Counted from the stretch's first letter, positions 13,931 through 22,246 are shown. The stretch: 64,000 bases of DNA from Candidatus Sumerlaeia bacterium (GCA_038208905.1 JBBQYG010000002.1:3626-67625); one strand, 5' to 3'. Made by a program: numbers and translations. Notes: a model not told the origin generated them from the letters alone.

Positions 13931-14718
13931 AGAAGCTCATCGTTTTTGACCTGGATGGTACACTCGCGGAAAGCAAAGCTCCCCTCGATGCCGAAATGGC
14001 TGCGCTATTGGGCGCCCTTCTCGCCTTTGAGAAAGTGGCGATCATCTCCGGCGGCAGCTGGCCACAATTCGAGAAACAGATCCTCCCCCATCTTCCACAC
14101 GACGGACGACTTGGGAATCTATCTCTTCTTCCCACCTGCGGAACGAAGTTCTATCGTTACGAGTCGGCCTGGAAGCTACTCTACTCGGAGGACTTCACTC
14201 CCGCGGCGAAGGAGCAAATCCGCAACGCGTTCAATCAGGCGGTTGCCTCGTCAGGCTTCGCAGCCAAACGAGTCTGGGGCGAGGTCGTGGAAGACCGGGG
14301 AAGCCAGGTTACTTTCTCTGCGCTGGGGCAGCTGGCACCCATCGAAGAAAGAAGGACGTGGGATCCCGACTTCGCCAAGCGCAAGAAGATCAAGGCGACC
14401 CTTGATGATCTCATCCCGCAGTTTTCCGTCCGCCTGGGCGGCATGACATCGATAGATGTCACCAAGTCGGGCATCGACAAAGCCTATGGGATTCGAAAAC
14501 TGAGCGACACGCTAGATGTTGCCATCCAAGAGATGGTATTTGTGGGGGATGCGCTGTTTCCTGGTGGGAACGACTATCCCGCCAGGAAAGCGGGCGTTGT
14601 GTCGATCCAGGTGAGAGACCCGGAGGAGACGAAGCGAGTGATCGAAACGATCGTCGCCTGCTTGGGTTGTGATCGAAATGCCGGCGCCGATGGACCGACG
14701 ATCGGGGGACAGAGATGA
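13927..14718 (+). CDS. HAD-IIB phosphatase, eukaryotic-type phosphomannomutase (PMM, PF03332)-like
   Basis: [14 protein letters not shown] (HAD motif I), [14 protein letters not shown], and C-terminal [15 protein letters not shown] resembling PMM FFGDKT.PGGNDHEI. ~263 aa as in PMMs. Overlaps both neighbours by 4 bp. Confidence 0.5.
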
Positions 14719-16190
14719 AGGGCTCCACCAACCCCGCCAACATCGGCAGCGTCGTTTCCGTACGAGGGAGCGTTGTGGACGTTCGCTTCGAGAGCCAGCT
14801 TCCACCGATCTACTCAGTGCTGCACACAGGCGAAAACGGACGCATTGTCATCGAAGTGTTGGCACACCGGGATGCACAAACTGTTCGAGGCATTGCGCTG
14901 ACACCAACGCATGGCCTCGCACGTGGAATGTCGGTGGAGGATACGGGCGGGCCGTTGAAGGCACCGGTTGGGAAGCAGATTCTCTCCCGGATGTTCGACG
15001 TGTTCGGCAACGTCATCGACCGCGGAACGGCGTTGACCGATGTGCAATGGCGTTCCGTGCATCGCGCGCCGCCACCGCTGGCGAATCGGTCCACGAAGTC
15101 CGAGATTTTCGAGACGGGCATTAAGCTTATCGATGTGCTCATGCCGCTGGAGCGCGGAGGCAAGGCGGGGCTCTTCGGCGGCGCGGGTGTTGGCAAGACC
15201 GTGCTGCTCAGCGAAATGATTCACAACATGATGGGCCAGCATCAGGGGGTCAGCATATTCTGCGGAATTGGCGAACGATGCCGGGAGGGCGAGGAACTCC
15301 ACCGCGAAATGAAGGAAGCCGGCGTGCTACCCCACATGGTCATGATCTTTGGCCAGATGAACGAACCTCCGGGCAGCAGGTTTCGAGTGGGACAGGCTGC
15401 TCTGACAATGGCGGAGTATTTCCGGGACGACGAGCATCGCGATGTGCTGCTGCTCGTCGACAACATCTTCCGCTTCATTCAGGCCGGCATGGAGGTGTCG
15501 GGGCTGATGGGACGAATGCCCTCCCGCCTGGGATATCAGCCCACCATGGGCACCGAACTTTCCTCTCTGGAGGAGCGCATCGCAAACACCGACACGGGAG
15601 CCATCACGTCAATCCAGGCGGTGTATGTGCCGGCGGATGATTTCACCGACCCTGCCGCCGTCCACACGTTCTCACACCTCTCCGCATCGATCGTCCTCTC
15701 TCGCAAGAGGGCCAGCGAAGGTCTCTATCCGGCCATCGATCCCCTTCAATCCAACTCGAAAATGGCAACACCTGGCGTTGTCGGCAAGAGACACTATGAA
15801 CTGGCGCAGGAAATCCGCCGGACACTCGCCCAATACGGAGAGCTCAAGGATATCATCGCCATGCTTGGCCTGGAGCAGCTTTCTCCGGAGGATCGCAACG
15901 TGGTTGGCCGCGCGCGCCGCTTGGAACGCTTTCTGACCCAGCCCTTTTTCACGACCGAGCAGTTCACCGGCCTGGATGGAAAGCTGGTCAGCCTCGAGGA
16001 TTCGCTCGATGGTTGCGAACGCATCCTTCGCGATGAGTTCAAGGACCATGCCGAGAGTGCGCTCTATATGATCGGAGCAATCAGCGAAGTGAAGGAAAAG
16101 CCGAAGACGGCGGAAGAAGCGGATCCGAAACCCGAATCCAGGAATCAGGAGGAGCCCGCGCATGACGCAATGGTCGCTCATGAATCTTAG
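14715..16190 (+). CDS. atpD: F-type (N-ATPase-type) ATP synthase beta subunit
   Basis: [19 protein letters not shown]-loop, DNIFRF, full beta-subunit architecture. First gene of an atpD-C-Q-R-B-E-F-A-G order typical of N-ATPase operons. Confidence 0.9.
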
Positions 16191-16569
16191 AATTCTCCTG
16201 CCATTTCAAATCTTCGCGGAGAGGGCGCGCGTCTCGCGCATCGTCGCGGAGAGCCGCCACGGCTCGTTCGGACTCTTACCGCATCGGCTGGACTATGTTG
16301 CGGCGCTCGCGCCGGGGATCCTGATCTTCGAATGCGAAGGCGAGGCCGAGACCTGCGTCGCCGTCGATCAAGGGATTCTCATCAAGTCCGGTCCGAATGT
16401 GCTCGTTTCTGTTCGCAACGCCATCGGCGGAACGGACCTCGGAGAACTGCGCGATGCCGTTGATCGGGAGTACAATGACCTGAACCAAGGCGAACAGGAG
16501 GTCCGTGCCGTGATGAAAAAGGTGGAGACCGGATTCATCGGTCGATTGGCGAGGTATCACCATGAATAG
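16162..16569 (+). CDS. atpC: ATP synthase epsilon subunit
   Basis: 135 aa directly after beta; strong AGGAGG RBS 10 nt upstream of ATG 16162. Beta-sandwich-like N-part ([24 protein letters not shown]). Confidence 0.7.
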
Positions 16570-19806: not shown

Positions 19807-21356
19807 ACGGAGAGCCTGAAAGCCTGCGGAAGGTCTTCGACGGCGCCTTTGCCCGTGTGACCGAGGCGAGGGAAGCGTTCTCGCCGACACTGACACCGCG
19901 CGAAGTGGGTGTGATCGCGAGTGTCTCAACCGGCATTGCCATCGTCACGGGATTGCCCGGCGTGAGCTATGATGAAGTGCTCACGTTCCCCGGCGGCGTA
20001 CCCGGCATCGCCTTCAACGTGGACGAGGAAGAAGTGGGCGTTGTTCTGCTCCGCGCCTATTGGCACCTGAAGGCTGGCGATGAAGTGCAGCGCACGGGAC
20101 GCGTCATGGAGGTGGGAGTGGGTGACGGATTGCTGGGTCGCGTCCTCGACCCACTTGGTCAGCCGCTCGATGGCAACGGACCCTTGACCTTCAGCGGGCG
20201 ACTGCCGGTTGAGCGCCCCGCACCGCCGATCATGGATCGCGCGCCCGTTACCGTTCCGCTTCAGACCGGACTCAAGGTCGTCGATGCGCTCATTCCCGTG
20301 GGGCGAGGCCAGCGCGAATTGATTCTGGGCGACCGCCAGACAGGCAAAACTGCTGTCGCGATCGACACCATCCTCAATCAGAAGAACCACAATGTGGTTT
20401 GCGTCTATTGCGCCATCGGGCAGCGCGCGTCGGCGGTTGCCAAGACGGTGGCAAGCATGAGGGAGCGGGGCGCGATGGAATACACCGTTGTCGTGGTGGC
20501 AGAAGGCGACGCCCCGCCTGGTCTCTCCTACATCGCTCCCTATGCGGCCACGAGCATCGCCGAATCCTTCATGGAAGCGGGGAGGGATGTGCTGATCGTT
20601 TACGACGATCTGACGCATCATGCCCGCGCCTATCGCGAACTCTCGCTTCTGCTCCGCCGGCCCCCCGGTCGCGAGGCGTTTCCCGGCGACATCTTCTACA
20701 TCCACTCTCGCCTGCTTGAGCGGGCGACGCATCTGCGCAAGGAACTCGGCGGCGGGTCACTCTCCGCGCTCCCCATCATCGAGACGGAAGCCCAAAACCT
20801 TTCGGCCTATATTCCCACGAACCTGATTTCCATAACGGATGGACAGATATATCTGTCTCCCGCGCTGTTTGAGCTTGGCGTCCTGCCCGCCGTCGATGTC
20901 GCCAAATCGGTCTCGCGCGTCGGCGGGAAAGCCCAGAGGCCTGCCTACAGGGCGGTAACGGGCGACCTTAAGCTCGCCTACTCGCAGTTCGAGGAGCTCG
21001 AAACCTTCTCCCGCTTCGGAGCCCGGCTGGACGAGAGCACGCGCAAAATTATCGATCATGGGCGACGTATTCGAGCCTGCCTCAAGCAGCCCGAATTCAC
21101 CCCCGTTCCCGTTATGGGGCAAATTGCCATTCTGTTGGCACTGAGCGAGGGTCTCTTCGACCAAGTACCGATCGAGAAGATGACGGACGCCGAAACTGCC
21201 GTGCAGGATGCGGCGGATAAGATCCCCGCGGAGGTCAGCGAGCGACTGGATACCGCCGACAAGTTGAGCGATCAGGATCGCGAGGCGATCCTCCAGATTG
21301 TCCGCACCGCCCTCCTTCCGTTCCAGCAAAAACCTGAACCGGACAAGAAGCCGTGA
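19803..21356 (+). CDS. atpA: ATP synthase F1 alpha subunit
   Basis: [20 protein letters not shown]-loop; full alpha-subunit length (517 aa). Confidence 0.9.
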
Positions 21357-22246
21357 GCGACACCTCCGCAAGCCTGCGCAGGAAAATCGACAGCGCGACA
21401 GATCTCCAATCTGTGGTGCGAACGATGAGGGCTCTCGCAGCCTCCAGCATCACACAATACGAACAATCGGTGCGCTCCCTGACCGAGTACTATCGCATTG
21501 TGGAGCTTGGGCTGGGTGCCTGCCTTCGGGAACGCGGCACGATGACCTTGCTTGCAAAGAAGAAGAATACGGCAAGGGTCGCTGCAATTACCGCGGTGGT
21601 GTTCGGATCAGACCAGGGACTTGTTGGTCAGTTCAATGATGAGGTAGTCGATTTCGCCTCGCAGACACTCGCGTCCCTGCCGGCAAAACCGGAAATCTGG
21701 GCCGTGGGCGAACGCGTTCAAGCCTCGCTGGCCGACGCGGGATTTCCTACACGGGGGCTCTTCGCGGTGCCCGGATCCGCGAAGGCGATCACGCCACTCA
21801 TCGGACGGATTCTCGTGGAGAGCGCGTCGGGTTCCGCACACACAATACATGGTGAATTCCACCTCTTCTATAATCGTCCCAAAACCGGCGCCGCCTATGC
21901 CCCTGTTCATCAGCGTCTGTTGCCGCTCGACGAAAGCTGGCGCAGCAGACTGGCCGCGATCCCCTGGCCGAATGGGAACAAGCCCCAAATCAGGGAGGAT
22001 CACAACGGGACCTTGAGGGCGCTCGTGCGTGAGTACCTCTTCGTCTCCCTTTTTCGCGCTTGCGCCGAATCCCTTGCGAGCGAGAACGCGAGTCGCCTTG
22101 CTGCAATGCAGCGCGCCGACAAAAACATCGACGATCTGCTCGAGGAACTTAATAGCACCTTTCATCGCTTGCGCCAGGACGGTATCGACGCGGAGCTCTT
22201 CGATGTCATTTCCGGCTTTGTTGCGTTGAGCGGGAAAAAGAAGTGA
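21353..22246 (+). CDS. atpG: ATP synthase F1 gamma subunit
   Basis: 297 aa; N-terminal helix [26 protein letters not shown] and C-terminal helix typical of gamma. Last gene of the operon. Confidence 0.75.

Follow-up and report, generated by a model that had tools for sequence, protein, structure and literature searches.

N-ATPases are a well-known kind of rotary ATPase, defined by the proteins AtpQ and AtpR, a missing δ subunit, the gene order and a motif in the c subunit. They have been argued to be ATP-driven Na+ exporters rather than ATP makers, and they are always second rotary ATPase copies (Dibrova, Galperin & Mulkidjanian 2010, PMC2881411). The ProAD resource counts 1,807 of them in GTDB, 914 predicted to use Na+ and 893 predicted to use H+ (PMC11738941). 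VIT1 and Ccc1 are antiporters of Fe2+ (also Mn2+ and Co2+) with H+, which in eukaryotes depend on the vacuolar rotary H+-ATPase (V-ATPase), and their bacterial homologs export iron (PMC7714665). Here we analyzed a stretch of 64,000 nucleotides from a Candidatus Sumerlaeia bacterium (GCA_038208905.1 JBBQYG010000002.1:3626-67625), referred to below as the window, in which a first-pass annotation had placed a complete N-type ATPase operon at 14715–22246. The nine ATPase genes are there, on the plus strand. Between the genes for the a and c subunits, however, lies a tenth, unrelated gene that encodes a member of the VIT1/CCC1 family (VIT from here on), and the operon is apparently an undescribed, lineage-restricted variant of a known enzyme.

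To characterize the locus, open reading frames (ORFs) were listed over 12–25 kb of the window, families were assigned with Pfam, and the subtype was assigned with the NCBIfam 'alternate F1F0 ATPase' models at their curated cut-offs. Ten consecutive plus-strand genes, the nine ATPase genes and VIT, lie within 14715–22246 in the order β-ε-Q-R-a-VIT-c-b/δ-α-γ. Each of the nine ATPase proteins matches the expected Pfam family and scores above the curated cut-off of its own N-specific model. AtpQ (PF09527, TIGR02230) and AtpR (PF12966, TIGR03165) are both present. No δ (atpH) ORF was found in the operon, either in the ORF listing or by profile search, and the 269-residue b subunit carries an OSCP domain (PF00213) at residues 179–244. 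On all these points, including the b/δ-like fused stator, the first-pass annotation was right. In the translations, the catalytic and coupling residues of the ATPase subunits are intact. Every feature that could be tested here thus supports the prediction of a complete N-ATPase operon (atpD-C-Q-R-B-E-F-A-G).

Two of the original statements need correction. The gene order had been given as β-ε-AtpQ-AtpR-a-c-b-α-γ; the ATPase genes do follow one another on the plus strand in that order, but a and c are not adjacent. Likewise, all junctions had been said to overlap or abut. This is true of the ATPase gene junctions, which are overlaps or gaps of at most 3 nucleotides, with the exception of the a-to-c junction, which spans 792 nucleotides and holds VIT. 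Compared with a canonical N-ATPase, the window operon is therefore alike in its nine-gene order, in AtpQ and AtpR, in the absence of δ combined with a long b, and in a c subunit with a Glu in the first transmembrane helix (TM1) and the ESTxxY motif, but it adds a gene between atpB and atpE. Because VIT sits there, the operon fails the strict βεXXac(bδ)αγ order rule of ProAD (PMC11738941).

The 792-nucleotide stretch runs from the a stop codon (17919) to the c start (18706 or 18712). It contains an intact ORF of 229 residues at 17928–18617 (plus strand), which the earlier annotation had missed. Its product matches PF01988 over positions 3–214 of the 214 in the profile (E = 2.2e-54, 185 bits, cut-off 28.1), a full-length match comprising the five-helix core and the cytoplasmic metal-binding domain. 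A phmmer comparison with the only solved relative, the plant vacuolar iron transporter EgVIT1 (PDB 6IU3), aligned residues 3–216 with E = 1e-14. In this alignment the protein keeps the TM1 Asp (GANDG), the TM2 Met (MSMAAG), the E-x-x-E Glu pairs (IEEGEI, RELIEL) of the cytoplasmic metal-binding domain, and also the Glu of RDELG. The corresponding EgVIT1 sites are Asp43 in TM1, Met80 in TM2, Glu102/105/113/116 and Glu153, in the numbering of Kato et al. 2019. For EgVIT1 Asp43 and Glu72, the roles have been confirmed by a review (PMC7714665). What sets the window protein apart from other family members, such as EgVIT1, PfVIT and the bacterial iron exporters MbfA and Pcl1, is that its gene is part of a rotary ATPase operon; it also differs from MbfA in having no N-terminal ferritin-like domain. 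That an atp operon can carry the gene for a membrane protein related to divalent cations has a precedent in AtpZ/AtpI of Bacillus pseudofirmus OF4, linked to Mg2+ homeostasis (PMC4453477). AtpZ/AtpI, however, belong to an unrelated family of small proteins, are encoded by the 5′-most part of an F-type housekeeping operon and serve uptake rather than export.

The VIT start codon is an ATG at 17928, 8 nucleotides past the a stop, with GAGGA ahead of it; if translation began instead at the GTG at 17916, VIT would overlap the a stop. A protein search returned thousands of homologs; identity is 61% or more in the best 120, most of which have 229 residues, and this supports the ATG. Downstream, the spacer between VIT and c (18618–18711, plus strand) is 88–94 nucleotides long depending on the c start, about 50 nucleotides longer than in other VIT-bearing operons, and contains the c ribosome-binding site AAGGAG at 18700–18705. 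An Rfam scan returned only a tRNA-Ser, with no metal riboswitch and nothing in this spacer. As for insertion scars around VIT, there are no inverted repeats and no transposase, only a 16-nucleotide direct repeat, ACCGCCGC(G/C)GTCGGAA, at 17899–17914 (the 3′ end of the a gene) and 18579–18594 (near the 3′ end of VIT). The repeat encodes TAAVG in both copies and is specific to the lineage of the window and L001; a small conversion tract or chance might account for it.

We next asked how widespread this arrangement is. In what follows, L numbers denote related metagenomic loci or contigs compared with the window, and P numbers denote VIT-homolog proteins. Context look-ups revealed the order β-ε-Q-R-a-VIT-c-b-α-γ also in L001, L002, L003, L167, L168/L169 and L170, so that at least five other metagenomic lineages carry a-VIT-c. 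L001 is a contig near-identical to the window (99.3% nucleotide identity); in L002 and L003, VIT is 73–74% and β 82–83% identical to the window. All carriers have homologous DNA immediately ahead of VIT, including GAAAGTGAG, which precedes the VIT ATG without variation. The a subunit of the window ends in a C-terminal tail of about 22 residues that reaches the VIT junction, and four non-window lineages with VIT have in common a distinctive a-subunit tail, ...EEESENTNVSS. The homologous a–VIT junction in all carriers indicates that VIT was inserted once into an N-ATPase operon. We relied on the junction because a neighbor-joining tree of the subunits with bootstrap (2,033 concatenated positions), tried as a test for monophyly of the VIT-bearing operons, was star-like, with basal supports of 1–40%, and such a tree cannot separate monophyly from recombination.

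Two comparison sets delimit the distribution. Among 80 species-representative genome loci with VIT homologs (56–68% identity, 10 kb context), none has an ATPase gene within 10 kb of the VIT homolog; 68% is the best identity to VIT in that collection. The other set was made up of the 80 metagenomic loci whose N-ATPase c subunits came closest (85–97% identity), and in none of these nearest N-ATPase loci sampled is there a gene between a and c, the gap being typically about 31 nucleotides. In the more distant, plasmid-borne N-ATPase operons of Legionella anisa and Hymenobacter psoromatis, c likewise follows directly after a. The a-VIT-c arrangement is thus confined to a small set of related operons. 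Among the papers searched, none names N-ATPase together with VIT. Earlier mention of insertions in N-ATPase operons concerns only cyanobacteria, as far as the main text of the defining paper goes, and the inserted genes are not named there (PMC2881411).

One VIT-bearing operon has decayed. At L164:7637-9130 (also in L165), an intact VIT lies between a remnant of the a-subunit tail and fragments of α and γ, and a DDE transposase gene adjoins. VIT stays intact where the ATPase genes have decayed, so it is selected in its own right and behaves like a gene that is sufficient by itself, not like a subunit of the ATPase. Several proteins had been considered in other roles. P0012 (VIT 72% identity), a candidate stand-alone donor, turned out to belong to a decayed operon remnant: its VIT follows an a-tail remnant, ...EEESEHTEVAS, and is itself directly followed by fragments of α (residues 323–350) and γ (residues 230–261). 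Another donor candidate, P0017 (VIT 71% identity), is truly stand-alone and has an unrelated context, and P0002 (397 residues), a possible a–VIT fusion, was found instead to be made of VIT sequence in tandem or chimeric form.

The substitution pattern tells the same gene's history from another side. By the pairwise Nei-Gojobori method, the ratio of nonsynonymous to synonymous rates (dN/dS) of VIT is 0.11–0.24 in every cross-lineage pair, with 0.08–0.11 for the a subunit and 0.12–0.27 for the b subunit as a comparison. These values show that purifying selection has preserved a functional VIT over a long period and across considerable divergence. At the same time, in L002, L003 and L167 the G+C content at third codon positions (GC3) is 0.57–0.61 in VIT vs 0.70–0.75 in the ATPase genes. 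Four-fold-site divergence of VIT is about half that of the ATPase genes in these loci (Fisher p = 5e-6, 1e-3 and 1e-6), and no other DNA segment of the operon is as conserved among them as VIT. The lower GC3, coupled with the lower silent divergence, suggests that VIT is a compositionally foreign cassette, younger than the split of the operons that carry it. Recombination by way of the conserved genes on either side of it, a and c, may have spread or homogenized it.

The window copy itself departs from this picture of constraint. Between the window and L001, VIT shows 7 nonsynonymous changes and 1 synonymous change, vs 8 and 21 for the nine ATPase genes together (Fisher p = 0.004). Five window-private changes (R16P, A78V, Y102C, V115A and F154L) are at columns conserved in 80–83 of 83 homologs. 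Nine further derived states at columns at least 90% conserved are common to the window and L001, compared with 0–1 in the other operon-borne VITs, and in the VIT tree the window/L001 branch is long (0.19). Statistically, then, the window VIT is intact but under relaxed or altered constraint, and it may be losing or changing its function.

The question of what the pump transports rests largely on the c subunit, which carries ...LAMIESTAIYCFV... and in which the diagnostic segments read GPALAEGKAV...LAMIESTAIY. Alignment to the c subunit of Ilyobacter tartaricus (PDB 1yce) shows that Gln32 is replaced by Glu and that E65, S66, T67 and Y70 are kept; ESTAIY was read in 83 of 88 related c subunits. 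This bears out the initial description of an ESTAIY motif with an extra Glu in TM1, and places that Glu at the Gln32 position. The window c thus has the Na+ ligand positions E65, S66, T67 and Y70 of the Na+ F-ATPase c-rings of I. tartaricus and Fusobacterium nucleatum (3zk1), and the Glu at the Gln32 position makes the window c a predicted two-carboxylate Na+ site, of the same type as the F. nucleatum one. Unlike the window enzyme, those two are housekeeping F-type synthases, encoded in ordinary operons with a separate δ. The N-ATPase of Burkholderia pseudomallei is of the same operon type as the window one and also has a two-carboxylate c subunit, but its site is E-T-M-x-x-Y, it is H+ specific and its operon has no VIT, whereas the window site, E-S-T-A-I-Y, comprises the full set of Na+ ligands. 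Because the full set (ESTxxY plus Glu at the Gln32 position) is present, Na+ is the best prediction; according to a published rule, such a set correlates with Na+ specificity (PMC2881411). Most likely, the enzyme hydrolyzes ATP to expel Na+ from the cytoplasm, and it may also move H+ at low Na+.

The account that we favor, and hold with reasonably good confidence as a whole, is that the locus encodes an N-ATPase, likely a Na+ exporter, together with a once-inserted, self-sufficient VIT metal exporter that would travel with it as a stress passenger. ATP hydrolysis by the N-ATPase would drive Na+ out of the cytoplasm, as the c-site sequence suggests. Given the 8-nucleotide gap after the a stop, VIT would evidently be co-transcribed with the operon and, as a co-regulated stress-response passenger, would export excess Fe2+ or Mn2+ by cation antiport. 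A self-sufficient metal exporter that joined a stress operon and is transcribed with it appears to be the simplest reading. A stronger and attractive one, by analogy with the dependence of eukaryotic VIT1/Ccc1 on the V-ATPase, is that VIT would use the ion gradient built by the co-expressed pump. Several observations weigh against this account. Nearly all close N-ATPases are without VIT, and nearly all VITs are without an ATPase; the excess of replacement changes may mean that VIT contributes little in this genome; and scans for sigma-70 promoters and intrinsic terminators were at shuffle expectation and hence uninformative. In addition, the only N-ATPase c-ring biochemically tested for ion specificity, B. 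pseudomallei c17, is H+ specific, although its site is E-T-M-x-x-Y (PMC5376962). This last point, that a two-carboxylate site can be H+ specific, also speaks for a proton-coupled enzyme in the window, an ATP-driven proton pump serving pH homeostasis as in B. pseudomallei. So do the ProAD prediction of 893 H+ against 914 Na+ N-ATPases (PMC11738941), the H+ coupling of VIT-type antiporters (PMC7714665) and the origin of the related contigs in metagenome collections that come without salinity characterization here. However, the window c subunit has the full ESTxxY set including Thr67, where B. pseudomallei has E-T-M-x-x-Y, and that set goes with Na+ specificity (PMC2881411). Moreover, an N-type enzyme of A. 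halophytica is reported to be Na+ dependent (as cited in PMC5376962), and genes for TrkH, TrkA and a fragment of a Na+/H+ exchanger lie immediately upstream in L003. We therefore regard proton coupling as rather doubtful. Still less probable is a main role in making ATP from a Na+ gradient instead of pumping. The catalytic and coupling residues would all permit it, being intact, and the A. halophytica enzyme has been described as a Na+-dependent F1F0-ATP synthase (again as cited in PMC5376962). On the other hand, N-ATPases are always second copies, and deletion of the one in M. acetivorans was without effect on ATP synthesis (PMC2881411). The sole known c-ring size, c17, implies a very high ion/ATP ratio, which was interpreted in favor of a pump (PMC5376962), and the neighbors of the window operon include acetate kinase and phosphoketolase, enzymes of substrate-level phosphorylation that supply ATP, not a Na+ gradient.

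The role of VIT is likewise open to other explanations. It could be a neutral hitchhiker, unlinked to the pump and becoming a pseudogene here, that persists since its removal would put the expression of the downstream c, b, α and γ genes at risk. The absence of VIT from all 80 of the closest N-ATPase operons agrees with this, as do the lower GC3 of VIT, suggestive of a foreign and later arrival, the 7:1 ratio of nonsynonymous to synonymous changes between the window and L001 with five changes at near-invariant sites (R16P among them), and the long branch (0.19). Yet the cross-lineage dN/dS of VIT (0.11–0.24) is similar to that of a and b, the ORF is intact in all carriers and even in L164/L165 after the loss of ATPase genes, and no residue that aligns with a transport or metal site of EgVIT1 has been lost. 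Hitchhiking is thus possible but, in our view, fairly unlikely. We give slightly less credence to the opposite extreme, in which a-VIT-c would form a genuine functional unit on a single transcript, the bacterial equivalent of the eukaryotic V-ATPase/VIT1 (Ccc1) pair. Here the pump would energize the expulsion of Fe2+ or Mn2+ in fermentative or dormant cells, without respiratory gradients, and the cassette would have spread by homologous recombination via a and c. Spread of this kind would explain both the lower silent-site divergence of VIT and its patchy distribution. Finally, VIT might have been recruited not as a transporter but as a physical accessory of Fo, either a c-ring assembly factor or an extra stator element. 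Its position exactly between the Fo core genes a and c, translationally close to a, invites this idea, and atp operons do carry small membrane protein genes (AtpI, AtpZ, AtpQ, AtpR), of which AtpZ affects Mg2+ homeostasis (PMC4453477). But VIT is 67–74% identical to hundreds of ordinary VITs, and all those checked outside the a-VIT-c clade stand alone. Furthermore, it retains its transport residues and is kept without the ATPase in L164, and the 80 of 80 sister operons that do without it have c subunits identical in their functional motifs. An accessory role is consequently very improbable, and a self-sufficient metal exporter remains the reading that we prefer.

Individually, the ATPase genes, all on the plus strand, conform to the N-type throughout. 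The 491-residue β subunit (atpD, 14715–16190) has the Walker A motif GGAGVGKT and GERCREG, and matches TIGR03305 (alt_F1F0_F1_bet) with 880 bits (cut-off 752) vs 617 bits for the generic atpD model. It is followed by the ε subunit (atpC, 16162–16569, 135 residues; PF02823; TIGR03166, 143 bits, cut-off 100), by the membrane protein AtpQ, or 'gene 1' (16562–16900, 112 residues; PF09527, E = 5e-17; TIGR02230, 131 bits, cut-off 46.7), and by the N-ATPase hallmark AtpR, or urf2 (16893–17207, 104 residues; PF12966, E = 1.8e-27; TIGR03165, 101 bits, cut-off 55.5), in which Arg residues lie inside hydrophobic stretches (MLLRSSIV, VAARILVV). The a subunit (atpB, 17197–17919, 240 residues), with the essential Arg in LAVRLFGN, scores 375 bits with TIGR03306 (cut-off 302) vs 117 with the generic F-type model. 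Beyond VIT, the c subunit (atpE, 18712–18993 or from the alternative ATG at 18706, 93 residues) scores 164 bits with TIGR03322 (cut-off 131) vs 43. The long b subunit with its δ/OSCP-like C-terminal part (atpF, 18997–19806) scores 324 bits with TIGR03321 (cut-off 225) vs 53; its PF00430 domain covers residues 10–137, and its OSCP match has E = 7e-8 (33 bits, cut-off 22.3). The last two genes encode α (atpA, 19803–21356, 517 residues, GDRQTGKT), with 902 bits for TIGR03324 (cut-off 750) vs 627, and γ (atpG, 21353–22246, 297 residues), with 389 bits for TIGR03323 (cut-off 282) vs 112.

Upstream of atpD are two more plus-strand genes. A DUF2254 membrane protein of 515 residues (12383–13930; PF10011, E = 9e-121) has a stop codon that overlaps the next gene by 4 nucleotides; this next gene encodes a HAD-IIB/phosphomannomutase-like hydrolase of 263 residues (13927–14718; PF03332, PF08282), and its stop in turn overlaps the atpD start (ATGA). 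Since the 4-nucleotide overlaps run on upstream through the HAD and DUF2254 genes, the transcription unit may be longer than 14715–22246 and begin ahead of the originally annotated start. DUF2254 homologs (60–69% identity) adjoin related N-ATPase operons in L088, L089, L114, L117, L124 and L130, and in L002, L149 and L161 the N-ATPase is preceded by a HAD homolog (70–72% identity). Both may be accessory or co-regulated genes.

The wider neighborhood fits a stress or low-energy setting. In the window it includes acetate kinase and phosphoketolase (within 8580–12232), the DUF2254 gene, two DUF892 genes and a GH94 glucan enzyme; in L003 it comprises TrkH, TrkA, the Na+/H+-exchanger fragment and CsbD, and in L002 GrpE and DnaJ. 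Genes for baeRF and a hibernation-factor-like protein, inserted between α and γ in L088, L114 and L167, fit such a setting too. The two DUF892 paralogs (ferritin-like, YciE/YciF-type stress proteins; 6376–6984 and 23218–23835) bracket the region. The GH94 enzyme (8–6133) is a protein of 2,041 residues with supersandwich and catalytic domains and a glucoamylase-like domain, and resembles a cyclic β-1,2-glucan synthase or phosphorylase. Genes for sugar catabolism and substrate-level phosphorylation recur beside N-ATPase operons, not only at 8580–12232 of the window but also at L168:1-4657, at L002:1-4735 and in L172. The recurring neighbors are acetate kinase, phosphoketolase, pyruvate kinase, GH130, aldolase and PPK2, with TPI and PGM on a Hymenobacter plasmid, which hints that fermentative ATP feeds the pump. 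Between about positions 10,000 and 25,000 lies a block with a G+C content of 0.57–0.61, vs 0.62–0.69 outside it. Close to where this block ends are a tRNA-Ser(GGA) gene (24247–24337, minus strand) and a truncated SDR gene (22489–22992), whose product matches PF13561 in its C-terminal 74 residues only. The block is compatible with an acquired island, in line with the known lateral mobility of N-ATPases. Within the 64-kb window there is no second ATPase operon. The pyruvate kinase encoded at 47491–48960 has its best named matches in metagenome-assembled genomes of Ca. Sumerlaeota (at most 62% identity) and its best match overall at 68%. DUF1559-like prepilin genes in the window and VIT matches in Planctomycetota had pointed to a planctomycete host, but this one housekeeping gene speaks instead for an uncultured, Sumerlaeota-like bacterium.

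Related N-ATPase operons show other variations. A second insertion site lies between α and γ, where a baeRF_family3 gene (PF18845) and an S30AE/HPF-like hibernation factor gene (PF02482) are found at L088:8834-10410, L114:12760-14330 and L167:8377-9362, and an HPF-like gene only at L097:4403-4882. The window is without this insertion, its α and γ genes overlapping by 4 nucleotides. The pairing of baeRF with HPF is known, but the paper describing it is silent on ATP synthase operons (Burroughs & Aravind, PMC6514570), and we found no mention in the literature of the pair inside an ATPase operon. In the VIT-bearing loci L167 (4851–6074) and L168 (9021–10124), the b/δ subunit is extended to 367–407 residues with a DUF2934 segment. 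L133 has a second β-like gene (7110–8582, minus strand), 47% identical to the N-ATPase β and 2.4 kb downstream of the N-ATPase γ, which is likely to be that organism's atpD of the housekeeping F-type.

The role of the N-ATPase, its coupling ion and the conditions of its use have so far been largely inferred, and genes that were captured by the operon and kept there are clues to when the pump is used. Two such cases emerge from our analysis, VIT in the window and the pair of baeRF and hibernation factor in related operons. Such operons will be overlooked or put in the wrong class by annotation rules that demand a strict gene order. Should VIT and the pump cooperate, the locus would represent a compact, ATP-powered unit for metal detoxification and an evolutionary parallel to the storage of iron in eukaryotic vacuoles. 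Should they be unlinked, it would instead be a clean case of a passenger gene entering a multi-subunit operon, spreading in it and starting to decay.

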